Notes: a model not told the origin generated them from the letters alone. A stretch of 64,000 nt of DNA from an uncultured Candidatus Saccharibacteria bacterium (GCA_937915225.1 CALDNO010000002.1:75911-139910), one strand, 5' to 3'; shown: positions 19,147-33,735, counted from the stretch's first letter. Translations and numbers: made by a program.

Positions 19147-20097
19147 TTACAGAATCGGCAAGGAAATTGTGAAAATGGTTGAGTTTTTCGAGGTGTTAAC
19201 AGAGATTTGTCCGCCGAGCGCTTTTGTCAATTGTTCCGCTAACGGCAATCCTAATCCGTAGCCTTTCGTCTGTTGGTTGCCGCGGAAAAATCGCTCAAAG
19301 ACGTGTGGCAGAGTTTGTTGCGAAATTGTGCCGTCGTTGATGAAGTTGACTGTGATGTTTTGTTTCGATGGGATAATGCGAATTTTTACCACAGAATTTT
19401 TCGGGCTATGTTTCAATGAATTGTCGAGTAAAATCGCGCATAATTCTCGCGTCGCAGTGTGATGAAGCGGAATATTTATGTGTTCTGGGCAATTCATTTT
19501 AACTCGCGCTTCGGCTTTTCGTTCGCGGATGAGTTCGGATATCAATTCCGTCAAATTAAAGCTTTTATCTTCCAGTGCCAACTTATTTTCTGTCCGTGAT
19601 AATTCCAGAAGCATCGCTGTAAGCTCAGTCAACTTATTTATTTCCTCCAAATTGCTTTCCAGAGTTTCTGTAAGTTCTGCCTTATTCGCCTTCTGATTTT
19701 TTAGCGCAAATTCAGTCTCTGCTTTCATAATTGCCAAAGGTGTTCGGAGCTGATGACTGGCATTGGCAACAAATCGCGATTGGGCTTTGTGAGCGGTTTC
19801 TATCGGTCGCAAAGTAATTTTCGCCAATAAATATGAACACCAACCGCCAGCGAGCAGAACGATAAGATTTATATAGCCCAAACTAATCAAAAGATTTCGA
19901 GTTGAATTATCTATTCTTTCCGACAAATTGATTGCAGGAAAATCGCCCTTCCTTTGAACGATAATTTTATGAATTTGCGCATCAACTTCCGAGCGCGCCA
20001 CCTGAAAAATAATGCTACTAAACAGCAAACTGACGATCATCAAAATCATCAAATACCAGCCCGCCAACTTAATTGTTGCTGAAGTAAAAATTTTCAT
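19147..20097 (-). CDS. Sensor histidine kinase
   Basis: Two TM segments, ASHQLRTPL H-box, LLDNSLKH, GYGLGL. Confidence 0.93.
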   Translation of the reverse strand: MKIFTSATIKLAGWYLMILMIVSLLFSSIIFQVARSEVDAQIHKIIVQRKGDFPAINLSERIDNSTRNLLISLGYINLIVLLAGGWCSYLLAKITLRPIETAHKAQSRFVANASHQLRTPLAIMKAETEFALKNQKANKAELTETLESNLEEINKLTELTAMLLELSRTENKLALEDKSFNLTELISELIRERKAEARVKMNCPEHINIPLHHTATRELCAILLDNSLKHSPKNSVVKIRIIPSKQNITVNFINDGTISQQTLPHVFERFFRGNQQTKGYGLGLPLAEQLTKALGGQISVNTSKNSTIFTISLPIL

Positions 20098-20762
20098 GAT
20101 TCAATCCTATAGCCGAAGCCGCGCACGGTTTTTATCAATTGTTTTTTGAACGGTTTGTCGATTTTTTGGCGTAGATTTTTTATGTACACCTCGACATTAT
20201 TCGGCAAAATATCAGCGTCAAAATCCCAAACGTGATCAATCAGCGTTTCCTTACTGAGAATCTGATTCGGATGTTGCATCAAATATTCCAGCAGCGCATA
20301 TTCTTTGTTTGTGAGGTCAATATTCTTTCCGGCTCGCGTCACGGTTTGCTGCTGCTTGTCAATTTTCAAATCGTCAATTTGCAGAACGTCTGGCTGACTA
20401 ATCGGTGGACGACGAAGTAAAGCTCGCACTCGCGCCAACAATTCGTCAATTGCAAAAGGCTTAGTCAAATAATCATCGGCTCCCACGTCCAGCCCGAGCG
20501 TTTTATCTTCGGTCGTGCTCAGCGCTGTCAGAAATAGAATTGGCATATTTTTCCCGTTCTCGCGCAATTTTTTAACAATCTCCGTGCCCTCTAATCCCGG
20601 CAACATTCGATCAACAATCAACAAATCATACGGCTGACTGTCCGCCAAATTAAAGCCTTCTTCCCCGTCATACGCCGCATCGACCGCGTATTTTTCGCGT
20701 TTCAAAGATTCGGTTATGACCCTTGCAATTTTTCGTTCGTCCTCAATAACTAGCAGTCGCAT
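20094..20762 (-). CDS. OmpR/PhoB-family response regulator
   Basis: IED, DRMLPG, GADDYLTKPF, TVRGFGY. Confidence 0.95.
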   Translation of the reverse strand: MRLLVIEDERKIARVITESLKREKYAVDAAYDGEEGFNLADSQPYDLLIVDRMLPGLEGTEIVKKLRENGKNMPILFLTALSTTEDKTLGLDVGADDYLTKPFAIDELLARVRALLRRPPISQPDVLQIDDLKIDKQQQTVTRAGKNIDLTNKEYALLEYLMQHPNQILSKETLIDHVWDFDADILPNNVEVYIKNLRQKIDKPFKKQLIKTVRGFGYRIES

Positions 20763-20825
20763 GTCTATATTATATCTTTTTTCCTGCGCTAAGTGCTATA
20801 ATTTTATTTGAAGAAAAGGAGGCGT

Positions 20826-21575
20826 ATGCCAGATAATAAAAAAATGGTTGAGATTCGTCATTTTAAGATGAGTTTCGGTGATAAAACTGTTATTAAAGAT
20901 CTGAGTTTCGATGTTTTTCGCGGCGAAGTTTTTGGTTTTTTGGGAAGTAATGGCTCGGGAAAAACTACGACGTTGCGCGCACTGCTTGGGCTATATCAGC
21001 CGACCGCGGGTGATTTATTGATAAACGGCAAGCCGTATTCAGTGGAGAGTCAGATTCGCCTCGGATATCTTCCTGAGGAACGCGGTTTGTATAAAAAAGA
21101 AAAAGTTTTAGACGTGATGCTCTACTTTGGTCAACTAAAAGGTTTGAGCCGCAAAGAAGCTAAGGATTTTTCTATGAAGTTTTTGGAGCGAGTCAATTTG
21201 GCGGATAAGGCTAACATGCAACTTGATAAATTATCTGGCGGACAGCAGCAGAAGATTCAGCTTGGCGTAACGATTATGGGTGATCCCGAACTGCTGATTA
21301 TGGACGAGCCGGCCAAAGGCTTTGATCCGGTAAATCGCCGTTTGTTGATGAATATAATTGAGGAGCAGCGAAAAGCTGGCGCGACAATTATTTATGTTAC
21401 GCACCAGATGGAAGAAGTTGAAAGATTGTGCGATCGCTTGATTTTATTGAAGGACGGTCAAGCTGCGGCATACGGCACATTGGAAGAAGTAAAAAGTCAA
21501 TTTGGCGGCGCTTCAATGGACGACATTTTTGTCCAAGTTTACGGCGGCGAAGCGAAGGAGTTGAGTGATGAGTAA
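20826..21575 (+). CDS. ABC transporter ATP-binding protein
   Basis: GSNGSGKT, LSGGQ, LIMDEP; AGGAGG SD before ATG 20826. Confidence 0.95.
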   Translation: MPDNKKMVEIRHFKMSFGDKTVIKDLSFDVFRGEVFGFLGSNGSGKTTTLRALLGLYQPTAGDLLINGKPYSVESQIRLGYLPEERGLYKKEKVLDVMLYFGQLKGLSRKEAKDFSMKFLERVNLADKANMQLDKLSGGQQQKIQLGVTIMGDPELLIMDEPAKGFDPVNRRLLMNIIEEQRKAGATIIYVTHQMEEVERLCDRLILLKDGQAAAYGTLEEVKSQFGGASMDDIFVQVYGGEAKELSDE

Positions 21576-22800
21576 AATGCATAATTTAGGGACAGTTTTC
21601 AAATTCGAGACGCTTAGAACACTGAAGAAGCCGACGTTTTGGTTGACGGCTTTAGGGTTTCCTTTGTTGATTGGCGTGCTGTATGGCATTATGTTTTGGT
21701 CGCAAAGCACGACTATTGAAGCGTCAAAAAATCTGGAAAAGCAAGAATTTTCGCTGGAAGTCACGGACGATTCGAAGTTGGTGAAGCCAGAATTACTGGC
21801 GGCAATTAAAGCCAAAACTGCCAAATCGAAAGAATCTGGAATTGACGACGTAAAAAATAATAAGGTTGACGCGTATGTTTATTTTCCAAAGGATTTGAGT
21901 AAGCAAAAGGTCGAAGTTTACGGTAAAGATGTTGGGTTATTCCAAAACGGAAAATACGGCGCGGTGGCACAGAGCTTATTGAGTCAATCAGTAGCAAGCG
22001 ATGTTAATCCAGCACAAGTTGCAATTTTACGTGACAAAGTCCAATTGTCATCAACCACATATCTGGACGGAAAAGAGCACGGCGGCATCAATGAGATGAT
22101 CGTGCCTGGAATGTTTTTGGCTATTTTGTTCATTCTCATCAGTATTTTTGGCAATCAAATGCTCATTAGCACTACCGAGGAAAAAGAAAATCGCACAGTG
22201 GAAATGCTGCTTACGACCGTTAAAACTGACACTTTAATTACGGGTAAAATTCTGTCTTTGATGGTGTTGGCCTTGATTCAGATTTTGGTGATTGTTTTGC
22301 CAGTTTTGGCGGGCTATTTGGCGTTTGGGTCGAAGCTGCAATTGCCTAATCTGGACTTGAGCACGCTCGTGTTTGATCCTGTGAGAATTGGTCTGGCAAT
22401 CATAATTTTCTCCGCCAGCTTCACTTTATTTACGGGAATGTTGGTGACTTTGGGTGCGATGATGCCGACTGCCAAAGAGGCCAGCCAGTGGTTCGGAATT
22501 GTGATTATGCTATTCATTGGTCCATTTTACGGAATCACGGCGTTCGTTTCCTTCCCTGATTATTTCTTCGTTAAGTTCTTGTCGCTATTTCCATTCACCG
22601 CGCCGATTCCATTGTTGTTACGAAACGCAATAGGCAATTTGCCGATTTGGGAAGCTTTGCTCGGCACGGCAATTTTGGTCGCTACAGCGGTGTTTGTTAT
22701 GTGGCTATCGGTGCGCGTTTTCCGCTACGGCGCAATGTCTTATGATAGTAAATTATCTCTGTCGGCGTTGCGAACACGCCGAAAAGCTGGTAAAGTTTAA
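21568..22800 (+). CDS. ABC-2 type permease (NatB-like)
   Basis: EEKENRTVEMLL, GKIL, six TM segments; follows the ATPase. Confidence 0.9.
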   Translation: MSKMHNLGTVFKFETLRTLKKPTFWLTALGFPLLIGVLYGIMFWSQSTTIEASKNLEKQEFSLEVTDDSKLVKPELLAAIKAKTAKSKESGIDDVKNNKVDAYVYFPKDLSKQKVEVYGKDVGLFQNGKYGAVAQSLLSQSVASDVNPAQVAILRDKVQLSSTTYLDGKEHGGINEMIVPGMFLAILFILISIFGNQMLISTTEEKENRTVEMLLTTVKTDTLITGKILSLMVLALIQILVIVLPVLAGYLAFGSKLQLPNLDLSTLVFDPVRIGLAIIIFSASFTLFTGMLVTLGAMMPTAKEASQWFGIVIMLFIGPFYGITAFVSFPDYFFVKFLSLFPFTAPIPLLLRNAIGNLPIWEALLGTAILVATAVFVMWLSVRVFRYGAMSYDSKLSLSALRTRRKAGKV

Positions 22801-22802
22801 TT

Positions 22803-23936
22803 ATGAAAGTACGTATAGAGATAGACACGAAAACATTTGTGCGATTTTGGCTGGTCGTGATGGGCTTTGGTCTGGCTGGTTTGGCAATTTATTCCGCAAA
22901 GGACGCGCTGGTTTTACTGGGAATTTCCCTGTTCTTGGCGTTGGCGTTGAATCGTCCGGTTGCGGCAATTGCTAAAAAACTTCCTGGGAAAAGTCGATTG
23001 GGCGGCACGGCGCTAGCATACACAACGCTGGTTTTGCTTTTGGGCTGTGTGATTTGGTTTGTGATTCCGCCAATTGTCCAACAATCCGCCAAATTCGTCG
23101 AAAGCATTCCGAGCATAATTGATCAAGCCAGCTCACAGTGGCGTGGCGTCAATGATTTTATTGATAAGAATAATTTGCGCCCGCAGGTCGATTCGATGAT
23201 GGAAAACATCAAGCAACAGTCTTCGTCTTGGGCAACGAGCGTCGGTACAAATCTATTGTCCAGCGTTGGCTCTTTGGCGTCGTTCTTAGGCTCGCTATTC
23301 TTGGTGCTGGTGCTGTCATTCCTGATGCTCCTCGAGGGCCCAACTTGGGTGAAGCGTTTGTGGGGATTATACAACGACGAAGAAAAAATGGAGCGCCATA
23401 AGAAGCTGGTTGGCCGAATGTACAACGTGGTCACAGGTTATGTTTCTGGGCAATTGACTGTTTCTGGAATCGATGCGATATTGTCAGGTTTCGTGGTGTT
23501 TGTGCTGAGTTTGACATTCCCTGTCATAAATTCCAATTTGGCAATGCTCACCGTTATGGCGACGTTTGTGTTGACGCTAATTCCGATGTTTGGCGCAACG
23601 ATTGCTGGCGCATTGATATCACTGCTGCTATTCTTCAATAATATGACAGCGGGCGTTATTTATGCGATTTATTTCGTGATTTACCAACAGATTGAGAATA
23701 ACTTTGTCTCTCCTTCTATCCAATCAAAGAAGGTTGAGCTGTCGGCTCTGACTGTCTTGGTTGCGGTGACAATTGGTTTATATGTCGGCGGTCTATTGGG
23801 CGGTTTGGTTGCTATTCCAGCCGCTGGCGTCGTAAAAGTTTTGCTGGATAATTACTTGGAGCAGGCCAAGTCTGAGCGCGTTGAAAGCGAAAAGCCTCTT
23901 AATAAATTAGTTAAGAAATTGAAAAACGAGGATTAA
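22803..23936 (+). CDS. AI-2E/PerM family transporter
   Basis: LIPMFGA, QQIENNFVSP, GGLVAIP. Confidence 0.88.
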   Translation: MKVRIEIDTKTFVRFWLVVMGFGLAGLAIYSAKDALVLLGISLFLALALNRPVAAIAKKLPGKSRLGGTALAYTTLVLLLGCVIWFVIPPIVQQSAKFVESIPSIIDQASSQWRGVNDFIDKNNLRPQVDSMMENIKQQSSSWATSVGTNLLSSVGSLASFLGSLFLVLVLSFLMLLEGPTWVKRLWGLYNDEEKMERHKKLVGRMYNVVTGYVSGQLTVSGIDAILSGFVVFVLSLTFPVINSNLAMLTVMATFVLTLIPMFGATIAGALISLLLFFNNMTAGVIYAIYFVIYQQIENNFVSPSIQSKKVELSALTVLVAVTIGLYVGGLLGGLVAIPAAGVVKVLLDNYLEQAKSERVESEKPLNKLVKKLKNED

Positions 23937-23978
23937 TTAGCACGAAATAAAAATATAGCCCGTTGAATCTCTAGCGGG

Positions 23979-25412
23979 CTATTTCCATGTCCAGATGCTG
24001 CCACTTGGAGTGTCGCGAACGGCAACGCCAGCCTGAAGAAGTTCATCGCGGATTCTGTCGGATTCTTCCCAATTTTTCTCTGCGCGTGCTTGACGTCGCT
24101 GGATAATCAACCTCTTCAAATCGTCAGTAATATCGGGCGTAGACTCAGTCAAATCCAGTCCCAAAATCTCGTCAATCTCATCAATAAACTGCACTAAACT
24201 CTGTCGATGAATTTTATCAAGCGACGTATGATCCAACTTTGAAAATACTTCATCAATCAACGCCAGTGCGCCTGGAGTATCCAAATCGTCATTCAATTTC
24301 TCGACCAACGCCTGACGTCCCGCTAGCAACGAAACTGAATCGTCCTGCTCGTCCTTATCATCGTCATCTTCCAGCGTGTCATGAGTTTGATGTCTCAGAA
24401 CCGCGTAATCCCGCCAATGATTCAATCGCGCCTGCGCTGCTTCCAGAATTTCCCAGGTAAAATTGCCTTCCGTCTGATAATGCTTACTGAGAATCGCCAG
24501 CTTAAACGCCATCGGACTAAACCCTCGCGAAATAATATCTTCCAGCGTAATAATATTCCCTAGAGATTTACTCATTTTTCGGCCGTCAACTTTTATGTGA
24601 TTATTATGTAGCCAAATCTGAGAAAATTGTTTTCCGGTCAGACTCTCGCTCTGGGCAATTTCATTCGTGTGATGAACTGGAATATGATCAATCCCGCCAG
24701 CGTGAATATCAATAGAATCCCCAAGTGTTTCACGGGCAATTGTCGAGCATTCCAGATGCCAGCCAGGAAAACCGACTCCCCACGGACTGTTCCACTCCAT
24801 ATCGCGCTTGGCGTCTTTTGGCGAAAACTTCCATACGGCGAAGTCAGTAATATTGCGCTTTCCTTCAACGCTCACTCTGGCGCCAGCTTCCAGGCCCGCC
24901 ACGTCCAGCCGCGCTAATTTACCGTAATCCTTCAAAAGCGACGTGTCAAAATACATGCCGTCGCCGTCGATTTTATATAAAAATCCCTTTTCGTCCAGTC
25001 CTTTTGCGAAGTCAATCTGCTGCTGAATATAATCCGTCGCCCGTACCAAGTAATCTGGTTTTATCAATTTCAGTACGTCGTAGGCCTCGTGATTGGCTAT
25101 GGAAATATATCTTTCCGCCACGTCCCAAGCAGTCTTCCCCTCACGGCGCGCACCTTTTTCCATTTTGTCCTCGCCGTTATCGTCATCACTTGTCAAATGT
25201 CCAACATCAGTGATGTTTTGCGTTCGAATAACGGGAATATCTTGCCAGCGTAGTAGTCGCACCAACACGTCCCAGTAAATATAGCCGACCCAGTTGCCAA
25301 TGTGCGGTTGCGAATAAACTGTTAGACCACAGGTGTAAAATTTGACCGTTTCTCCATCAAGCGGCTTCAGTTCATCTTTTCGTCTAGTGAGCGTATTGTA
25401 GAGTTTTATCAT
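23979..25412 (-). CDS. cysS: Cysteine-tRNA ligase
   Basis: LYNTLTR, HIGN, PGWHLEC, HHTNE, KMSKS; true start 25412 after a TACAAT box. Confidence 0.97.
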   Translation of the reverse strand: MIKLYNTLTRRKDELKPLDGETVKFYTCGLTVYSQPHIGNWVGYIYWDVLVRLLRWQDIPVIRTQNITDVGHLTSDDDNGEDKMEKGARREGKTAWDVAERYISIANHEAYDVLKLIKPDYLVRATDYIQQQIDFAKGLDEKGFLYKIDGDGMYFDTSLLKDYGKLARLDVAGLEAGARVSVEGKRNITDFAVWKFSPKDAKRDMEWNSPWGVGFPGWHLECSTIARETLGDSIDIHAGGIDHIPVHHTNEIAQSESLTGKQFSQIWLHNNHIKVDGRKMSKSLGNIITLEDIISRGFSPMAFKLAILSKHYQTEGNFTWEILEAAQARLNHWRDYAVLRHQTHDTLEDDDDKDEQDDSVSLLAGRQALVEKLNDDLDTPGALALIDEVFSKLDHTSLDKIHRQSLVQFIDEIDEILGLDLTESTPDITDDLKRLIIQRRQARAEKNWEESDRIRDELLQAGVAVRDTPSGSIWTWK

Positions 25413-25455
25413 TAATTCTATTGTACGGCACTCTGGTTGGTTTTTCAAAATTGAC

Positions 25456-25493
25456 ATAAAAAACAGCCCCAGTTGGGACTTAATAATTTCCAA
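25456..25493 (-). repeat. Conserved 3' element and terminator, cassette B
   Basis: 37 of 38 nt identical to 26302-26339; AGTCCC-AACT-GGGGCT then GTTTTTT. Confidence 0.9.
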
Positions 25494-25561
25494 GAAATAG
25501 CGCAAGCAGCCTTTATAAAAAAGAACAACTTGTCGCTATTGTGCGTGCTAGTAGATAGCCC

Positions 25562-26083
25562 TCAGTTGGCGTTTTTTGCCATCCTTAGGAGGTTGTCTGT
25601 GAGTAGCATCTCATGGTTGATGCTATCAAGCGCATAGCACGATATAGGATTAGTGTACACAACGAGACGAAGAGGGACTATGCTAAAGCGGCGTGCCTCT
25701 TCCGCTAGCTTAATCTCAGCGTTGGCAATGAGCGGAGGAAGGTCCACATTGAGGGCTTCACCTAACCTATCTGCTGCTGCAAACAAGCTACTCGGGGAAG
25801 CCCACTTCTGTAACTCTGGACAGTGCCGATAGGCTGCAATAGTGAACACGCATATCTCGATGCGGTTCAATATTTCTAGCAGGCCATCTAATCCGGCCTG
25901 CCCGTAGGCGTCCCTAAAATCTTCGACTAACTTCTCCCGGTCACGACAAATGGCCTCAAATAGCTTCCAATCGAGTTTACTCACTTGGACCGTAACAGGC
26001 CTAAGGACCGGATCCTCGAGTGGGCTGTCGAAAATCAGGATCTCTCCACTGCACTTACACGTTTGAGAATCGATGAGTTTCAT
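25562..26083 (-). CDS. Orphan protein, cassette B
   Basis: 173-aa ORF with GAAAGGGAG SD; no recognisable motif. Confidence 0.75.
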   Translation of the reverse strand: MKLIDSQTCKCSGEILIFDSPLEDPVLRPVTVQVSKLDWKLFEAICRDREKLVEDFRDAYGQAGLDGLLEILNRIEICVFTIAAYRHCPELQKWASPSSLFAAADRLGEALNVDLPPLIANAEIKLAEEARRFSIVPLRLVVYTNPISCYALDSINHEMLLTDNLLRMAKNAN

Positions 26084-26136
26084 CGTTCTCCCTTTCTTCT
26101 CATCCCCACGTGAATGTGGTTAAGCGTTGTTCTTTT

Positions 26137-26297
26137 CAACACAGGATGAGATTCCATTCCTCTTTATATTTTCTCCTCAAAAAAGGAATAAAACCTCATC
26201 CCGTGCTAGGCTGCTTGTCAAGGTGCGCTTTTGGACAAGGATTTACTCGTCAACAAAAGCTGTATTCATTTATATCACACTTGCGTAAAAAAGTCAA
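26137..26297 (-). promoter_or_regulatory. Promoter and structured leader, cassette B
   Basis: TTGACT-N17-TATAAA (26269-26297), 5' hairpin 26227-26260, GCACCTTGACAAGCAG 26211-26226, 29-bp hairpin 26137-26208. Confidence 0.85.
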
Positions 26298-26301
26298 TAG
26301 A

Positions 26302-26339
26302 ATAAAAAACAGCCCCAGTTGGGACTTGATAATTTCCAA
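26302..26339 (-). repeat. Conserved 3' element and terminator, cassette A
   Basis: 37 of 38 nt identical to 25456-25493. Confidence 0.9.
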
Positions 26340-26474
26340 TGAATAGTGACAAGCAGATGCGCGCTAAGACGCATCAGAAAATTGTATCTTAGACTCATCA
26401 CTATTCAGCAGTTGCTCCTGATAACTTACTGCTATAAAGCAGAAAGAAATCAGGAGGTCAGAGTTACCTCAGGA

Positions 26475-27152
26475 CTAAAGCAAGAGGCAATGCTTCCCAG
26501 GTACTACTTCGGGTAGCAATAGGCTGTTGCTGCTACCCTTTACCGATACGAGTCCTGCGTACTCGTCGCCAACGAACTTCTGCATTCGAATTTCCCCACG
26601 GTGAGGATAAGATTCTACTTTGCGGAAGTAGACGTCTTCCTTTCCAGGGATGTGAAAGTTGAATTCGCGGAGGTAAAGTGCGTTACCTACGGTCAGGCTA
26701 GCGCCTTTTCGGAATACGTAGAAGTTGCCTACGTCACCGTCCACCATGAGGAAAAAACATGATTCGTCAGTCGTGGCGATAATGGTGCCGTTTACAGTGT
26801 GAGTGACGGTAAAGAAATCGCCGTACTTTAGTTGTACGTGACCTAGGGAACCGTAGCGGAAACGGTATCCGCAAATGTTCCCATTGCCGTCGAACATTGG
26901 CAGTAGTCCAGGATCGCCCTGCTTGTTACCGAAAATGAAATCTACGGTGACACCGTAGTCGTCGGACAACTCGTAGCCGTAGAAGTGCTTCCGTTGTGGC
27001 TGGTACTCCCTGTTGCTCGGGAACATGACGTTAACGCTCTTGTCTTCGCCGGAGTAGAAGGAAAATCCACCCATGTGGAAGGCGACCTTTCGCTGTGATG
27101 GTACGGTGTACAAGACAACAGGACGCTTGGCGTTGTTTGCGATAGAGGCCAT
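26475..27152 (-). CDS. Orphan protein rich in Gly and aromatic residues, cassette A
   Basis: 225-aa ORF with GAAAGGAG SD; no recognisable motif. Confidence 0.78.
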   Translation of the reverse strand: MASIANNAKRPVVLYTVPSQRKVAFHMGGFSFYSGEDKSVNVMFPSNREYQPQRKHFYGYELSDDYGVTVDFIFGNKQGDPGLLPMFDGNGNICGYRFRYGSLGHVQLKYGDFFTVTHTVNGTIIATTDESCFFLMVDGDVGNFYVFRKGASLTVGNALYLREFNFHIPGKEDVYFRKVESYPHRGEIRMQKFVGDEYAGLVSVKGSSNSLLLPEVVPGKHCLLL

Positions 27153-27232
27153 TTCTGGCTCTCCTTTCTCTTTCTCGCGGCGAACGGTTCGCCATCTTTG
27201 CTTTTTGGCAAATAATCATGCGTGCATATGAT

Positions 27233-27420
27233 CAAGCATGAAACGAGATTTCAATTGTCAATTATATATTCTATCAACAACTAAAACCCCGCTTCATGCT
27301 TAAGTTTCGTCTTAATCTTCTTACATCTGCTTGTCAAGGTGCGCTTTCGGATAAGGAGTAAATCTCAACTCATCAACAAAAGCTAATGTTATTTATATCA
27401 CACTTATATTAAAAAGTCAA
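27233..27420 (-). promoter_or_regulatory. Promoter and structured leader, cassette A
   Basis: TTGACT-N17-TATAAA (27392-27420), 5' hairpin 27343-27383, GCACCTTGACAAGCAG 27327-27342, 30-bp hairpin 27233-27302. Confidence 0.85.
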
Positions 27421-27509
27421 TGGATTTTGTCAAAAATGTGGTATAATATTTTTCTCAACTCTGTTACAGACGTAAAGACTGATATATACCAACAATGTTA
27501 CAATAACTT

Positions 27510-28496
27510 TTAACCCTGCCCTACTTCTTGCAAAGCTTGATCTGTTGCTGTAACTAATTCTCTTACTATTTCGTCGTAATTGTCATACACGCGGAATCCT
27601 GCCGCGTACGGATGGCCGCCGCCGCCAAAATATCCAGCTACGGTATCGGCAATTGGTAAATTACCTCGTAGGCGCGCAGTCAATTTGCCGTCAGGGTAAG
27701 TTTTAATAACACAACTAAGCGCCACGCCTTCAACCAGTCTCAGCTCGTCGCCAATTAACGCGCCGGGATTATAAGCGTCGCTGTAGGTTTGGATTTCCTC
27801 AAATGGCACATGCACTAGCGCCAATTGTCCGTCTAATAAATATTCGATTCGCTCGATCAATTTTCCCTTGTACGTCAAAATTTCTGGCGATTTTTTCATA
27901 AATTCGCGTCGTCGTTCTTCAATTTCTGCGTTGGAAGCGCCCAGTTCTGTAAGTTCTCCCGCCGTATGGAAAGTCTGAGCCGTGGTGTTTTGCGTAGTAA
28001 GCCCCAGGCTATCGCTCATAATAGCTATCAATAAATCTTCGGCCGCCTGAGGATTTATCTTCCAGTCGGAATACTTGAACAGTTTATATAGCAATTCTCC
28101 GGTCGCCACGACGGTTTCTGATAGCATAATATGGTCAAAGCTAAGTGTCGATTCGGCTGTGTGATGATCGATAACCAGAGTTGGGTGCGTTTCTAAGAAA
28201 TGTCGCGCTCCAGGAGTTTCCAATACCTTACTGAGAAGCACGTCCGCGCTTGTATCGACAATTATCGCGGCGTCAGCTTGAAACGGAAAGTCGTTCTGCA
28301 CTCGATCCCAACCGCGAATGTAATGAAGATATTTCGGTATATCTACTGGACAATATAAAGTAACAGTCTTCCCTAAGTCGCTTAAGACTTCTTCTAGCGC
28401 CAAGCTTGAACCCAGGCTGTCGCCGTCGGGATTTTCGGCTTGAATAATAACTATATTGTTTGCGGATTGAATAAATTGTTTAGCTGTATCTAGCAT
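27510..28496 (-). CDS. DHH-family phosphoesterase (NrnA-like)
   Basis: NPDGDSLGS, IDHH, GGGGHPYAAG. Confidence 0.92.
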   Translation of the reverse strand: MLDTAKQFIQSANNIVIIQAENPDGDSLGSSLALEEVLSDLGKTVTLYCPVDIPKYLHYIRGWDRVQNDFPFQADAAIIVDTSADVLLSKVLETPGARHFLETHPTLVIDHHTAESTLSFDHIMLSETVVATGELLYKLFKYSDWKINPQAAEDLLIAIMSDSLGLTTQNTTAQTFHTAGELTELGASNAEIEERRREFMKKSPEILTYKGKLIERIEYLLDGQLALVHVPFEEIQTYSDAYNPGALIGDELRLVEGVALSCVIKTYPDGKLTARLRGNLPIADTVAGYFGGGGHPYAAGFRVYDNYDEIVRELVTATDQALQEVGQG

Positions 28497-28703
28497 ATTA
28501 TTTATTATAACAAATGATTTTTACTCTAATATAATATATATTGTTTTTAATTACATAAGTGGTATAATATGTGATGGACTATTAAAAATACTGCGCAATC
28601 GAAAAAACATAAACATTTTTATAAATTATTATTGACAAAATATAAAGATTGTGCTAGTATGAGGACATAAAGCCTGAAGATAGGGCTGGAAAGAGGAGTT
28701 TTT

Positions 28704-29885
28704 ATGAACAAATTTAAGAAAATCGGCATCGCTATCTCTCTGGGATTCGCTATGCTCGGTGGAATCTGGTTGGCATCACCTTCACAGGCTGCCGGCTGTA
28801 ACAAATTTAACGTTGTATACTGTGGTACACATTCTATGTCAGAATTACAAACAGCATACAGCCGTACAGAAATTAAAGAACTATATAAAGAATGGTACAT
28901 TACCAGCACTATGATCCAAGGTGGATCAAACATGCGTGAGGGTGTAGTTGACGCAAACGGTAACATTACTGTTGACGGTCGTGTCGTGGCTACAAACTCT
29001 ATAACTGTACAGTCTAAGGCTGGTACTCGTCAGCCTCAGCCACAACGTAGCTACAAGACTTCAAACGGATATACTTACTACCAATATCCAACTGGTCAAA
29101 GCTTCGTTGACGGCCCTAAGAGCTACAGTATGTATGCATGGTTTGACAACGACGGTAAATTCATCACTGGTGTGATTAAAGACTGTGGTAACCCAGTTTG
29201 GGGTACTCCAACAACACCTCCTGCAAAACCTGCATTAACATGTGACGCATTGCAAGTTCTAAAAATTGAAGACAACACCTACAAGTTTGTTGTAAACGCA
29301 ACCGCTAAGAACGGTGCAAGCATCACCAGCTACACATACAACTTTGGTGACGGTACAACTAAGACTATTAACTCATCTACAATTGAGCACACTTACACAA
29401 AGTACGGCAGCTTCAAGGTTACTGTAATCGTAAATGGTAAAGAAAATGGCGAAGTCAAGAAACAAAGTCCAAACTGTGAAAAGACTATCGTAATTGAACC
29501 TGAAACAAAACTTCAAGTTTGTGACCTTAAGACTAAGAAATATGTAGAGATTAAGAAGTCAGAATTTGATAAAAGTAAGTACTCAACAAATCCAAATGAC
29601 TGTAAAGAAGCACCTGCTAAGATCACAATCTGTGTAATCGATAAAAAAGAGCTTCGTGAAATCAAGAAGGAAGAATACAACGAGTCAAAGCACACAACTG
29701 ACTTGAGTAAGTGTAAGGAAGTTCCTACTACACCTACTACCCCTACACCAAACACTCCTTCAACACCAACACCTAGCCCAGAATTGCCAAAGACTGGTGC
29801 AAGTGACGCGATTATGTCAGCACTAGGCCTAGGTGGACTAACTACAGCTACTATCGCTTACATCGCTAGCCGCCGCCAAATGTAA
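28704..29885 (+). CDS. Surface protein with signal peptide, PKD domain, Cys-flanked repeats and LPxTG-type anchor
   Basis: N-terminal signal; YNFGDG..HTY..G.F.V PKD pattern; Pro/Thr linker; LPKTG plus hydrophobic segment plus SRRQM tail. Confidence 0.85.
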   Translation: MNKFKKIGIAISLGFAMLGGIWLASPSQAAGCNKFNVVYCGTHSMSELQTAYSRTEIKELYKEWYITSTMIQGGSNMREGVVDANGNITVDGRVVATNSITVQSKAGTRQPQPQRSYKTSNGYTYYQYPTGQSFVDGPKSYSMYAWFDNDGKFITGVIKDCGNPVWGTPTTPPAKPALTCDALQVLKIEDNTYKFVVNATAKNGASITSYTYNFGDGTTKTINSSTIEHTYTKYGSFKVTVIVNGKENGEVKKQSPNCEKTIVIEPETKLQVCDLKTKKYVEIKKSEFDKSKYSTNPNDCKEAPAKITICVIDKKELREIKKEEYNESKHTTDLSKCKEVPTTPTTPTPNTPSTPTPSPELPKTGASDAIMSALGLGGLTTATIAYIASRRQM

Positions 29886-29902
29886 TAGGTCAAGCTAGCA
29901 AC

Positions 29903-29933
29903 GAAATACCCGCCGAGATGGCGGGTATTTTTT
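29903..29933. terminator. Bidirectional terminator
   Basis: AAATACCCGCC-GAGAT-GGCGGGTATTT between convergent genes. Confidence 0.85.
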
Positions 29934-29955
29934 ATTGTCGATGAAGCTGTTGAAT

Positions 29956-30573
29956 CTATAACTGTTTTCGACCTTCTAGTGCGTGAGTCAGTGTAATTTG
30001 GTCTGCGTACTCGAGGTCAACGCCGACTGGAATACCTCTAGCTAAGCGTGTGATAGTCGTATTCAATCCAGCTTCCTGGATGTAGCGCTGTAAGAATAGC
30101 GCGGTCGACTCGCCCTCAACTGAAGCGTTCGTAGCGATGATAATCTCCTGAACGTCGTCGGTTTTTATGCGCTCAATTAGTTCTGGGATATGCAATTGCT
30201 CTGGTCCAATATTATCAATTGGTGAGATAACGCCACCCAGCACGTGATATGTTCCTGTAAATTGCCCTGTTCTTTCTATAGCGACAATGTCCAGCGGTTC
30301 CTCGACTACACAGACGAGCTTTTTATTTCTATTTGCGTCCGCATATAAAGGCGATACATCGTCATCTGAGTCGATGAGCGCAAACGTCTTCGGACAAGTC
30401 TTTACATGGTCATGTAGGCGATCTAACGAATGCGCCAACTGTTTGGCGGATTTGGGGTTGCGGCGTAAAACCGCGTAGGCATATCTTTCAGCCGTACGCG
30501 GTCCAACTCCGGGTAAATTACCAAAATCATCAATTAAGGCCGTCAACGCCTTTGGTAAAATATCGATAGACAT
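29956..30573 (-). CDS. recR: Recombination mediator RecR
   Basis: LPGVGPRTAER, YHVLGG, EGESTA, RLARGIPVG. Confidence 0.95.
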   Translation of the reverse strand: MSIDILPKALTALIDDFGNLPGVGPRTAERYAYAVLRRNPKSAKQLAHSLDRLHDHVKTCPKTFALIDSDDDVSPLYADANRNKKLVCVVEEPLDIVAIERTGQFTGTYHVLGGVISPIDNIGPEQLHIPELIERIKTDDVQEIIIATNASVEGESTALFLQRYIQEAGLNTTITRLARGIPVGVDLEYADQITLTHALEGRKQL

Positions 30574-30577
30574 AATC

Positions 30578-30868
30578 TTAGAATGGTAAATTGCCCAAGC
30601 CGCCCATCAATGGCTTCATAGTTTCAGCAGCGACTTCCTGAGCCTTTGTCATGCCGTCGCGAACTGCGATTTCGATCCAGTGCTCCAACTCTTCGATATT
30701 CTCCAAGTCGACCATTTCTGGGTCAATCTTTACAGACTTAATTTTTAATTCACCAGTAATTTGTACAATTACCGCGCCATCGCCAGCTTCAACTTCGATG
30801 ATTTCTTTGCCTAATTGTTTCTGTGCTTTGCGTAATTGTTGCAGCATTTTTACCTGATCAAACGCCAT
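30578..30868 (-). CDS. YbaB/EbfC nucleoid-associated protein
   Basis: AGDGAVIVQITG..IDP pattern; adjacent to recR. Confidence 0.9.
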   Translation of the reverse strand: MAFDQVKMLQQLRKAQKQLGKEIIEVEAGDGAVIVQITGELKIKSVKIDPEMVDLENIEELEHWIEIAVRDGMTKAQEVAAETMKPLMGGLGNLPF

Positions 30869-30900
30869 ATTCCTCCTTATTTAACACTTACAATTATACC

Positions 30901-32361
30901 TTATTTCCTGTCGGATGTGTAGATATAGAATCGGTCGCCGTCTTTATGATCGTTCACCAAAATGGACGATACGTGGCCTTGATAGCTCTTAGGAACTTGT
31001 GATTTTGCGGAGTGGCTAACATATAGTGTCTGTCCTATGTTTGCTGGCGCTGTTGTAATAATCGATATTCGGGGGTAATTATGCTTTTTAAGAGCTTCGT
31101 AAATTGGTAACTCTTCCTTGCTGACTAATAACGAGAATGAATCCGTCGGAGCGGTATTTTTGCGAAGTAAAGACAAGTCCTTATTAAAGCGAGAAGCTGC
31201 CTCTGGGAAATAACGGTAGCTGTCAATATAGCGGAAGCTGCCGCCCACCACCATAACGATAATTAGCATTGATATAAGAACCAGTCCTGTGCCGCGAGCG
31301 TATGGATTGCGCGGGAAAAGTCCGTACCACATATTCATCAGGGACTCCAATCCGACCGCCAAGAGAATGAATAGCGGGATGATGATTATTGGGGTGAGGC
31401 TTGGCTGAAAGATGAGTAGTGCCAATGCTAAGATTAGCCACGACCAAATCATAAACGAGCGGGCGCTGGAGATTTTTTGGAAGCTGCGGAATAGTCCTAG
31501 CCCTATTAACACCATTGCGTTGATGTCCATAATTGGTGTGATTTGGTTCCCTACGACTGATGGGAAAATGCGGATGTATGTGTAATATAAAGTCCTGAGG
31601 TTTGCAACGATGTCAAAACTTAGGCTGTTGATGCCGATGAGGTTGTAAAATAGCGCGTGGGATTTATAGCAAAGAAAACCAATCGCACAGCCAATCGTGA
31701 ATAAAATAGCGGACGGCACAATCCAAGATTTACGATGTTTTCGGGAGATGAGGAAATAGCGTGGGTGTGGATGCAGGAGGGCTATGATCAGAAGTCCCAG
31801 ATTGATATACCAAAAATACGGAGTGAAGAGGCTGAGCGCCGTGGTGATGGCTAAGCTGATTCGCCAAATGGAAGCGTTCTGGGCTTTCTGGAGAATTAAT
31901 GTAGAAAAAAGTAAAGTTAGCGCGGTGTAAAAGATGTATAAAATGCCAACAGTTGCGCTTTGTCCGATGAATAAGAATTGTCCAGTTGTTGCCATGATTA
32001 ATAGCGACAGAATTGTCGTGGACGGCTTAAACCAGCGTTTTAAGAGGAAGAAAATAGCGACGGAGCTGGCGATTGAAAGGATTACGGCGGGCGCTTTAAT
32101 TGTTAATAAACTGACGCCAAATAGCTTGAAGAATAGCAATTGAAGAAGGTGAAATGGCAAATTTGTGACGGCGATTCCTTCGACGCTAAAATTCAAGTGA
32201 TTTGTCGTATTGACCATGTCGATTTCTGCTTGCGACAAACCCCCTGGCACGTGTAACGCAGAAATTATAATAGCCCCTACATACAACAGCGCCAGCAACG
32301 TATAGCCGAAAACGTAGCGCCATCGGTAAAGGAATATATCGGTAACTTTTTGCTTTTTCAT
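30901..32361 (-). CDS. Multi-pass membrane protein, possibly GT-C (ArnT/PMT-like) glycosyltransferase
   Basis: About 11-12 TM segments; PFHLL..FG.S....KAP..I pattern resembles GT-C N-terminal region. Confidence 0.55.
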   Translation of the reverse strand: MKKQKVTDIFLYRWRYVFGYTLLALLYVGAIIISALHVPGGLSQAEIDMVNTTNHLNFSVEGIAVTNLPFHLLQLLFFKLFGVSLLTIKAPAVILSIASSVAIFFLLKRWFKPSTTILSLLIMATTGQFLFIGQSATVGILYIFYTALTLLFSTLILQKAQNASIWRISLAITTALSLFTPYFWYINLGLLIIALLHPHPRYFLISRKHRKSWIVPSAILFTIGCAIGFLCYKSHALFYNLIGINSLSFDIVANLRTLYYTYIRIFPSVVGNQITPIMDINAMVLIGLGLFRSFQKISSARSFMIWSWLILALALLIFQPSLTPIIIIPLFILLAVGLESLMNMWYGLFPRNPYARGTGLVLISMLIIVMVVGGSFRYIDSYRYFPEAASRFNKDLSLLRKNTAPTDSFSLLVSKEELPIYEALKKHNYPRISIITTAPANIGQTLYVSHSAKSQVPKSYQGHVSSILVNDHKDGDRFYIYTSDRK

Positions 32362-32382
32362 TGGTATGATTATAACACAATT

Positions 32383-33735
32383 CTATTCATGCTTGCGATC
32401 CAGACTCATAAAGCGTAGGCGCTCTGGGTGGAAGTATAATTGAACTTTACCGACTGGACCGTTACGGTGCTTAGCGATGATGAGGTCTGTAATATTCTGA
32501 ACTTCTGGGTTATCAGGCTCGTAATATCCGGGGCGATAAATAAAACTCACGATGTCGGCATCCTGCTCAATGGAACCAGATTCACGCAGGTCGGCTAGTT
32601 GCGGAATTGGCGGCGTACGAGATTCGACAGAACGGCTCAACTGGCTCAGGGCAATTAGTGGCACATTCAATTCGCGAGCAATAAGCTTCAGCCCGCGTGA
32701 AATTTCCGAAACTTCCTGAACGCGGTTCCCGTTGTGGTTTCCGTTGGCCTGCATAAGCTGCAAATAGTCGACGATGATTAATCCTAATGGATTCTCATGA
32801 GCAATTCGACGCGCTTTAGTCCGCATTTCCAAAACCGACAGTCCTGGTGTGTCATCAATGTAAATTGGCGCCTCAGCCATTTCTCCCATAGCCTCAGACA
32901 GCTTTGCAAAATCTTCATCGCTCAGATTTCCGGTGCGAATATTCCAGCTATCAACTCCCGACGCATCCGCCAGCATACGGTCGACCAGCTGCTCCTTGCT
33001 CATCTCTAGGCTGAAGAATAGGACGGGATTTTTCTCAATCGTCGCCACGTTATAAGCCAGATTCGTCACTAGTGTCGTTTTACCCATAGCTGGGCGCGCC
33101 GCCAGAATGATCAAATCTGATTTTTGCAAGCCAGCGGTCATATTGTCTAGATCGCGATAGCCAGTACGAACTCCCCTGAGAGAACCTTTATTCTTACTGA
33201 GTTCTTCAATTCGGTCAAAGCTATCCGTCAGAATACTTTCCAGACTGACCAAATCTTGCTTGGTTGATTGGTCTGATACGCTGAAAAGTTCAGCTTCGGC
33301 CTTCTCTAATAATTCCTGCGTGGTCGTCGATTCGTCATAGCCAAGCTCGGAAATATCACCACTCGCTTTTATCAGACGCCTGCGAACCGCTGCTTGCGCA
33401 ATCATTTCCGCGTAAGCCGATGCGTGCGCTGCCGTTGGGACGTAGTTCGTTAGCTCTGTCAGATATGCCGATCCGCCAACCAATTCTAGCTCGTCCTTTC
33501 GCTTCAACTCGTCGGTTAAGGTCAGAAGGTCGACAGGCTTGTGTTTTTCAAATAGCCGCATCATTCCAGCAAAAATCAATCCGTGATTCTTGTCGTAAAA
33601 ATCGCTAGGGTGAGTAATTTCTGCGGCGTCCGCCAAAACTTCCTCGTCAATTAAAACCGCCCCAAGCAAACTCTTTTCCGCGTCCAAATTTTGTGGCGGT
33701 ATCTTCCCTTTTACTTCTTCACTTTTATCTGCCAT
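32383..33735 (-). CDS. dnaB: Replicative DNA helicase
   Basis: AARPAMGKT, FSLEM, DYLQL, LSQLSR, DLRESGSIEQDAD, AKHRNG. Confidence 0.98.
   Translation of the reverse strand: MADKSEEVKGKIPPQNLDAEKSLLGAVLIDEEVLADAAEITHPSDFYDKNHGLIFAGMMRLFEKHKPVDLLTLTDELKRKDELELVGGSAYLTELTNYVPTAAHASAYAEMIAQAAVRRRLIKASGDISELGYDESTTTQELLEKAEAELFSVSDQSTKQDLVSLESILTDSFDRIEELSKNKGSLRGVRTGYRDLDNMTAGLQKSDLIILAARPAMGKTTLVTNLAYNVATIEKNPVLFFSLEMSKEQLVDRMLADASGVDSWNIRTGNLSDEDFAKLSEAMGEMAEAPIYIDDTPGLSVLEMRTKARRIAHENPLGLIIVDYLQLMQANGNHNGNRVQEVSEISRGLKLIARELNVPLIALSQLSRSVESRTPPIPQLADLRESGSIEQDADIVSFIYRPGYYEPDNPEVQNITDLIIAKHRNGPVGKVQLYFHPERLRFMSLDRKHE

Follow-up and report, generated by a model that had tools for sequence, protein, structure and literature searches.

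A predicted rRNA-like leader–trailer wrapper around exchangeable orphan genes in Saccharibacteria

Among the closest described counterparts of the element reported here is the ribosomal RNA (rRNA) leader–trailer/boxA arrangement with its rrnTAC, in which a promoter, a leader hairpin, boxA and complementary strands stand around the cargo (PMC10250234, as far as its available part describes them); the same components recur in our element. For boxA itself, the available part of PMC5725501 gives the gamma-proteobacterial consensus GYTCTTTAANA and describes Nus complexes that repress translation up to 100 nucleotides (nt) from it. Here we describe two abutting units, A (26302-27420) and B (25456-26297), in a 64,000-nt stretch of DNA from an uncultured Candidatus Saccharibacteria bacterium (GCA_937915225.1, CALDNO010000002.1:75911-139910; hereafter the window). 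They lie on the minus strand between cysS and nrnA, the upstream neighbour, recognised by its DHH/DHHA1 domains in Pfam. Each encloses a different open reading frame (ORF, the payload) in a common RNA scaffold, referred to below as the wrapper. A first-pass annotation had located its promoters, hairpins, 21-nt block, Shine-Dalgarno (SD) sequences, ORFs, AATAG..CTATT hairpin and 38-nt element, all of which are present at those places on the minus strand; it overlooked the main structure, a long-range pairing of GACAAGCAG.

The 21-nt block, identical in both units (27327-27347 in A, 26211-26231 in B), is, as judged from its sequence, a boxA-like element whose 3′ half opens a leader–trailer helix predicted to close over the ORF. 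Upon folding, GACAAGCAG of this block finds its pairing partner, CTGCTTG(T/C), near the opposite end of each unit, and the extension of the helix changes in step between the two units (AGATGT/GCATCT in one, AGCCT/AGGCT in the other). A 16-mer pattern occurs exactly twice in the window, where chance would give on average 0.40 matches with up to 3 mismatches, and the RNA of unit B is far better folded than its shuffles (z -9.5, 0 of 20 shuffles). Examination of 127 boxA-like sites in relatives yielded 75 complete cassettes, the others being cut by locus ends or lacking a recognised end. Helix positions +9, +10 and +11 pair in 65, 58 and 60 of these 75 distinct cassettes, respectively, compared to shuffle maxima of 50, 53 and 50; the three positions lie outside the search pattern, and the energy filter applied at cassette selection may favour pairing. 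In divergent copies, both helix strands are altered throughout and TTRACA alone is kept, with compensating strand pairs GACAGAGTAG/CTACTCTGTC, GACAGGCGTGG/CCACGCCTGTC and AACAAGTAGTGA/TCACTACTTGTT. Starting from the opposite side, a pattern for the 3′ hammerhead end (29 of 401 genomes, control 0) had the 5′ element upstream in 28 of 30 loci and on the other strand in none of the 30; one of the 28 resembles a chance match, and of the two misses one resembles chance and one has a variant element. This covariation indicates that the leader–trailer helix forms.

The wrapper is laid out like the 16S rRNA unit of its lineage. In the same genus this unit consists of promoter, leader hairpin, GAACTTTAACAA, 16S, trailer strand and terminator AAAGTCCC..GGGGCTTTTT (the 16S gene was found in four of five genomes examined), and the 3′ half of GAACTTTAACAA starts the 16S processing helix, a duplex of -35.9 kcal/mol. 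The wrapper has a boxA of the form G(C/A/T)(A/T)C(C/T/A)TTGACAA and a similar terminator. Its copy in unit A is identical to GAACTTTAACAA at 9 of 12 positions, the variant GAACCTTGACAA at 10 of 12, and the general form G-N-N-N-N-TTRACA is comparable to the rRNA leaders GAACTTTAACAA, GTCCTTTGACAA and GATCATTAACAA, with GCCCTTTAACAA in locus L319. In genome G063, GTCCTTTGACAA stands in the 16S leader and GTACTTTGACAA in the wrappers. At loci L152-L155 the 16S gene is a separate unit with its own terminator, apart from the tRNAs and the 23S gene, and the 23S leader bears a second boxA-like element. At L048:1325-2760 and L285 a boxA-like element is located between promoter and SD and no trailer strand was found; the 447-amino-acid (aa) ORF of L048 is lipoprotein-like by eye, with a HEXXH motif.

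The features of the two units are listed below.

27392-27420, minus: unit A sigma70-type promoter, TTGACT (27415-27420), 17 nt and TATAAA with an extended -10 TG (TG-A-TATAAA, 27392-27400); register kept in relatives, activity presumed
27343-27383, minus: unit A 5′ hairpin, placed as the rRNA leader hairpin is; its 2-nt bulge is conserved
27331-27342, minus: unit A boxA-like element GCACCTTGACAA, putative NusB site
27323-27336, minus: unit A leader strand S5, overlapping boxA, predicted to pair with 26347-26360 (probability 0.78-0.99)
27234-27301, minus: unit A long hairpin H of some 29 bp, putative site of RNase III cleavage
27161-27169, minus: unit A SD AGAAAGGAG, -13.5 kcal/mol against the lineage's anti-SD
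26475-27152, minus: payload A, 225 aa, predicted all-beta, of a lineage-restricted, fast-evolving family
26394-26406, minus: unit A internal decoy strand S5*, forming a predicted alternative local 3′ hairpin (-24.0 kcal/mol, shuffle mean -12.4)
26347-26360, minus: unit A trailer strand S3 of the long-range helix (predicted pairing)
26302-26339, minus: unit A 38-nt 3′ element, immediately next to the unit B promoter; its intrinsic terminator is at 26302-26326
26269-26297, minus: unit B promoter, TTGACT (26292-26297) and TG-A-TATAAA (26269-26277), activity presumed
26227-26260, minus: unit B bulged 5′ hairpin
26215-26226, minus: unit B boxA-like element
26208-26220, minus: unit B leader strand S5, predicted to pair with 25501-25512 (probability 0.16-0.47 at the outer pairs 26218-26220, 0.87-1.0 at the others)
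26138-26207, minus: unit B long hairpin H
26091-26155, minus: unit B RAGATH-10-like region, in which the 3′ strand of H can alternatively pair with GGATGAG (26099-26105) before the SD
26088-26097, minus: unit B SD
25562-26083, minus: payload B, 173 aa, predicted three beta strands and four-helix bundle, under diversifying selection
25529-25540, minus: unit B decoy strand, weak (-16.5 kcal/mol, no better than shuffles, p 0.21)
25501-25512, minus: unit B trailer strand S3
25456-25493, minus: unit B 38-nt 3′ element, which includes a terminator and is followed at once by the cysS promoter region

The TTGACT-N17-TATAAA promoters of the first-pass annotation are thus present as sequences, but the final T of the -10 hexamer is missing and a consensus promoter scan listed neither; in relatives, TAGTAT or TAATAT occupies the equivalent position. 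The two 38-nt elements are identical at 37 of 38 positions. Examined by eye as a candidate twister-like structure, this element was rejected, as the loop is freely variable and the element is scored as a terminator. No T-box or other known leader matched over the Rfam cut-off in the window. Among ORFs at 20000-33000, no integrase was detected by reading and by Pfam on the two nearest upstream genes, a genome-wide search not having been made.

The search of further Saccharibacteria genomes proposed in the annotation located the scaffold across the order Saccharimonadales and allowed payload ORFs to be catalogued. The exact 16-mer pattern occurs in 53 of 401 genomes of the class, including G373, which is marked unpublished and contributes to no other result, and in 20 of 29 in the nearest genus (reversed control, 13 genomes); the 3′ partner is present in 24 of 29 inspected 16-mer loci, and four of the other five resemble chance matches in genes. 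A separate scan with the bare 16-mer gave mostly chance matches. A structured pattern retrieved 117 stretches in the genome collection. Among the 80 listed, 76 are labelled Saccharibacteria, two are labelled 'uncultured bacterium' and two belong to other bins, on roughly 1-kb contigs; these last, L163 and L207, were binned as Spirochaetia and Atopobium and are most likely mis-binned Saccharibacteria DNA. The same pattern has 0 matches in viral contigs, on which grounds a phage origin was ruled out. A sequence model detected the wrapper in 31 of 151 genomes of the order and 27 of 122 genera, with seven copies in G001; such genome counts are lower bounds and kin genomes are not independent. Model R1, built without base pairs, missed the rRNA leaders. 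Outside the order, three weak model matches were obtained among 151 genomes of the phylum, all in coding sequence. Environmental wrappers L400, L317, L173 and L335 lie directly after or near tRNA genes. At L403:1240-1500, a payload 37% like that of L193 (G+C at third codon positions, GC3, 0.86) is accompanied by a promoter and an H-like hairpin, with no clear boxA or trailer, probably a reduced or divergent wrapper. At L045 and L371 (G001:C14:118700-119200) the terminator runs into a further promoter and a second orphan membrane-protein gene, without the standard boxA block in its leader.

Among the 75 cassettes, the 3′ end is a type III hammerhead in 35 and a terminator in 40. In relatives, the hammerhead folds with a CUGAnGA and GAAA core, three stems and an NUH site, the predicted cleavage site falling about 9-10 nt past the helix; full-length matches to RF00008 have E-values of 7.5e-5 to 3.7e-3 in three of four loci, below the gathering score. 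Self-cleavage is predicted for these copies. The 5′ side of unit B matches RAGATH-10 (RF03147) with 30 bits and E 0.0089, the gathering score being 41.2, and unit A gives no match. RAGATH-10, a motif that reportedly came from a ribozyme screen, exceeds the cut-off in 3 of 13 related loci (L298, L127 and L165), and all six matches in 151 genomes fall inside wrappers. Within the wrapper it corresponds to the stretch from hairpin H to the SD. A few copies show three-way matching changes. One 222-nt wrapper (L288/L328, G202:C1:15512-15819) is empty: helix, decoy and hammerhead are present and no ORF of at least 45 aa. It could possibly have a non-coding product or represent a blank cassette.

A second copy of the leader strand, the decoy, sits 12-70 nt ahead of the trailer strand, and the AATAG..CTATT hairpin which it forms is an alternative fold to the long-range helix. 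Decoy pairing beats mononucleotide shuffles in 62 of 84 cassettes (p ≤0.05), and in 74 of 84 it also beats a control taken within the ORF; the decoy of unit A is strong, that of unit B not significant. In 47 of 52 hammerhead cassettes, the best local duplex extends at least 4 nt past the trailer and so reaches stem III. Since it would cover stem III, the hammerhead should fold only once the long helix has formed.

The 75 payloads, most of 70-320 aa, fall into 32 BLAST clusters. In the slot before cysS, a complete wrapper is present in 21 of 30 same-genus loci, with eight payload clusters, and two more were seen in part. Together with the covariation of the scaffold, these numbers bear out the suggestion that it is the RNA wrapper on which selection acts, the payload being variable, and comparative sequence analysis establishes the architecture, the helix and the swapping of payloads at fixed slots. 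The two window proteins are dissimilar, as had been claimed (BLASTP E 42, all-beta versus four-helix models); on the same evidence the units are no simple tandem duplication of diverged paralogues, and their scaffold recurs elsewhere and covaries.

Payload A has zero matches in Pfam, PHROG and NCBIfam and 21 clusters in 1.84 billion representatives; its model is all-beta, with a pLDDT of 70.6 and no fold match, which in itself would not show a new fold. The payload B model (pLDDT 90.4) gave generic bundle matches only, with a best Z of 9.4. No function for either was obtained from Pfam, PHROGs, NCBIfam, Atlas (hits ≤0.82), Foldseek or VIA, and homologue searches returned 10 and 26 relatives, respectively, all unnamed. 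Across the payloads scanned, Pfam found one GIN domain and one Tad4 Thoeris inhibitor (104.5 bits) over cut-off among 51, PHROGs matched 5 of 42 and NCBIfam 0 of 29. The Tad4 (type I Thoeris inhibitor) is the C-terminal part of L206:1436-2371, fused to a domain common to payloads L160 and L170. Distant phage relatives (34-47%) belong to Bacillus and mycobacterial phages for the Tad4 payload and to Streptomyces phage Gilgamesh for a second family; in one membrane payload family, 119 of 125 phage matches are actinophage records, and one family has a Mycolicibacterium relative. A transmembrane-like segment is present in 23 of 75 payloads. The median ratio of nonsynonymous to synonymous substitution rates (dN/dS) is 0.39 for payloads (67 pairs) compared to 0.036 for cysS (183 pairs), payloads evolving about ten times faster; it exceeds 1 in 6 of 67 payload pairs and for payload B is 1.51 against L137 and 0.72 against L150, all being simple pairwise counts on non-independent pairs with recombination outside the model.

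Saccharibacteria generally live on Actinobacteria and are naturally competent. TM7x and Schaalia form such an epibiont–host pair, and TM7x has a hypothetical gene, TM7x_01560, in its nrnA–cysS slot. In the available part of PMC10768705, which gives ratios only, log2 values of recovery versus first contact are -2.3, -2.1 and -1.9 for this gene, +1.0 for nrnA and -2.5 for cysS, so that the slot gene is 4-5 fold higher at first host contact. At 28704-29885 the window encodes a secreted protein with a PKD domain, a linker rich in proline and threonine and an LPXTG-like anchor; its positional counterpart TM7x_01570 is also higher at first host contact (PMC10768705, same part).

In five related genomes, a set separate from the window's own genome, NusB and RNase III are encoded in all five. 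In each, the genes nusB and rnc share a strand and are separated by about 0.6 kb (G001:C15:47185-48790, likewise in G005, G006, G012 and G044), a proximity which fits a shared role in RNA maturation. Rho was found over cut-off in 0 of 5, so that the wrapper would serve in folding and not as a shield against Rho. RtcB was likewise found in 0 of 5, as was reverse transcriptase (PF00078); Tornado-like circularisation is without support, with RtcB in 0 of 5 genomes and no 5′ ribozyme seen.

We think it somewhat probable that the wrapper is an rRNA-derived chassis from which discrete and stable mRNAs are made, the parasite itself translating them into exchangeable proteins for host interaction. The sequence provides, in order, promoter, 5′ hairpin, boxA-like element, leader strand, ORF, trailer strand and terminator or hammerhead; Nus binding, gating, processing and purpose are proposed by analogy with E. 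coli work (available parts of PMC10250234 and PMC5725501). NusB–S10 would bind boxA, and the Nus complex would keep the leader at the RNA exit channel and bar ribosomes from the nascent RNA. Helix formation would hide the 3′ half of boxA, free the Nus complex and permit 3′-end formation, either by the terminator, as in the window, or by the hammerhead, which could fold only with the trailer bound to the leader instead of the local decoy. The product would be a long-lived mRNA with both ends within helices, and RNase III acting in hairpin H would remove the leader and cause refolding into the RAGATH-10 junction and decoy hairpin. Payloads, mostly foreign or orphan genes, would be swapped through homologous recombination between wrappers, and their proteins would act at or in the host. 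This anatomy also lends good support to the annotation's idea of processed or stabilised mRNAs.

Several points weigh against the chassis. The wrapper is known here as DNA, with NusB binding, RNase III cleavage and hammerhead activity at the stage of prediction, and the relatives compared are not independent samples. The element is found in only about one fifth of the order, its helix of 11-16 bp is shorter than that of 16S, and it has a G at the position of the A of the gamma-proteobacterial boxA. Hammerheads score 30-36 bits, below the 48.5 of Rfam, with 0 of 13 loci over the cut-off, and are absent from both window units, each of which has a terminator at its end. Payload codons are strongly unlike those of the producer's ribosomal-protein genes, which would be odd for genes heavily translated there. 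At the 5′ end, predicted SD access is nearly unchanged between the two folds (0.52 versus 0.48) and the alternative pairing of the 3′ strand of H with the pre-SD repeat is significant in 16 of 48; a predicted translation switch there is a lead only. Finally, TM7x_01560 is assigned to a wrapper from gene order, the wrapper itself being unseen directly, and cysS moves together with this gene (-2.5; PMC10768705, available part).

In another reading, wrapper-marked mRNAs are kept off the parasite's ribosomes, folded and, with their stable precise ends, delivered to and translated in the actinobacterial host. Saccharibacteria would then inject mRNA effectors (anti-defence, membrane and orphan payloads) and swap them in an arms race. 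Payload GC3 is above that of flanking genes in 52 of 59 cassettes and far above that of same-genome ribosomal-protein genes (0.93/0.53, 0.74/0.30, 0.77/0.32 and 0.80/0.42). Environmental payloads are nearest in codon use to Actinomycetota (root-mean-square distance 0.128; flanks 0.183, ribosomal-protein genes 0.145-0.256), on a reference of 11 ORFs from chance loci that were picked for GC3 >0.75, are not known hosts and thus favour this reading. One family holds its G+C at four-fold sites (GC4) at 0.70-0.82 though 39-58% of these sites differ. The Tad4 domain and the actinophage-like membrane proteins suit action inside the host cell, and boxA is able to block translation in the producer. The bias may nevertheless stem from the donor, and GC4 tracks the lineage in two other families (0.40 versus 0.68, 0.39 versus 0.71); oral payloads (GC3 0.55) are nearer in codon use to Saccharibacteria than to Actinomycetota, and the G007 payload (0.57) lies below its neighbours (0.61-0.71). 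SDs of -8 kcal/mol or stronger are found for 61 of 75 payloads, 73 of 111 ribosomal-protein genes and 27 of 114 flanking genes; as they are equally typical of the producer's highly expressed genes, SD strength was ruled out as a sign of host translation. Export machinery is not linked to wrappers, and we regard RNA delivery as unlikely, if worth keeping in view.

Recombination at the DNA level could alternatively be the whole story, the unit being a PeSL-like promoter–terminator cassette with incidental RNA structure, or a silencer of toxic foreign genes. The terminator of unit A abuts the promoter of unit B (26288-26339) and payloads shuffle at fixed slots, as PeSLs do in T4-like phages (PMC2839356, available part), and boxA represses a toxin gene in Citrobacter (PMC5725501, available part). 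This would leave the covarying long-range helix, the decoy and the hammerhead unexplained, and the strong SDs, together with selection that is purifying on most payload pairs (dN/dS below 1 in 61 of 67), show that proteins are made; we consider it quite improbable. Least probable in our estimation, and very doubtful, is a selfish or replicating RNA of retrozyme, satellite or obelisk type with integrated DNA copies. The hammerhead, the alternative folds silencing it, the highly paired RNA and the dispersed copies would suit such an element, as would the empty 222-nt unit L288 and the units that adjoin tRNA genes. Yet there is a single hammerhead, of one polarity and replaced by a terminator in 40 of 75, and the unit has its own promoter; five genomes gave no reverse transcriptase or RtcB, 32 clusters no conserved replication protein and viral contigs 0 matches, and the chromosomal slots are fixed.

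Patescibacteria carry many orphan genes, and their ways of manipulating hosts are for the most part little understood. The wrapper offers a sequence tag for a fast-evolving, exchangeable gene set and hence a short list of candidate host-interaction genes; as the order includes cultured oral strains, TM7x_01560 offers a direct test. It would be an instance of the rRNA Nus and leader–trailer machinery put to general use as a chassis for mRNAs, in cells in which no Rho was found, and it supplies a context for RAGATH-10 and for these hammerheads. Its decoy hints at a naturally occurring ribozyme under the control of a helix spanning up to a kilobase. Should the RNA indeed enter the host, this would be bacterium-to-bacterium mRNA delivery.

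How does the wrapper compare with known systems? In both the lineage's 16S unit and the wrapper, boxA overlaps the helix and a terminator follows. The wrapper differs in enclosing a variable protein gene with an SD, in its shorter helix, and in a decoy and hammerhead without rRNA counterpart; Rfam gives no rRNA match in the window. By this anatomy, it appears to work like an rRNA leader–trailer unit and is not an rRNA operon. The mRNAs of suhB type similarly have a 5′ UTR boxA about 20-180 nt from the SD, whereas boxA there represses and triggers Rho termination (PMC5725501, available part); in the wrapper, Rho was not found, boxA is tied to a trailer helix, the 3′ end is defined and the family is multigene. 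PeSL cassettes of T4-like phages likewise repeat a strong promoter and terminator around shuffled orphan genes (PMC2839356, available part). They are phage elements, in contrast to wrappers at nrnA–cysS with 0 viral-contig matches, and the abstract of PMC2839356 names no boxA, long-range helix or ribozyme.

Integron cassettes are promoterless with attC, while each wrapper unit has its own promoter and terminator (attC was not searched separately). In retrozymes, obelisks and the synthetic Tornado system, a hammerhead stands beside a stem joining the RNA ends. The wrapper differs from these in its single 3′ ribozyme, often absent, its DNA-encoded promoter and the lack of a shared protein; general Pfam scans of payloads gave no Oblin-type match, and the 32 clusters are unrelated and the units chromosomal. 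By the features tested, it is not an integron, retrozyme or obelisk. The annotation did not identify the boxA/leader–trailer plan, the RAGATH-10 fragment or the relatives' hammerhead. RAGATH-10 covers 82 nt only, with a closing stem alternative to hairpin H, and has no boxA, helix, decoy or payload exchange. PMC5737381 holds no RAGATH passage, and no description of the whole wrapper was found in the open literature, most subscription papers and the RAGATH-paper supplements, which may hold some context, lying outside that search. The wrapper is a real, widespread and apparently undescribed system assembled from known parts: boxA, hammerhead and RAGATH-10.

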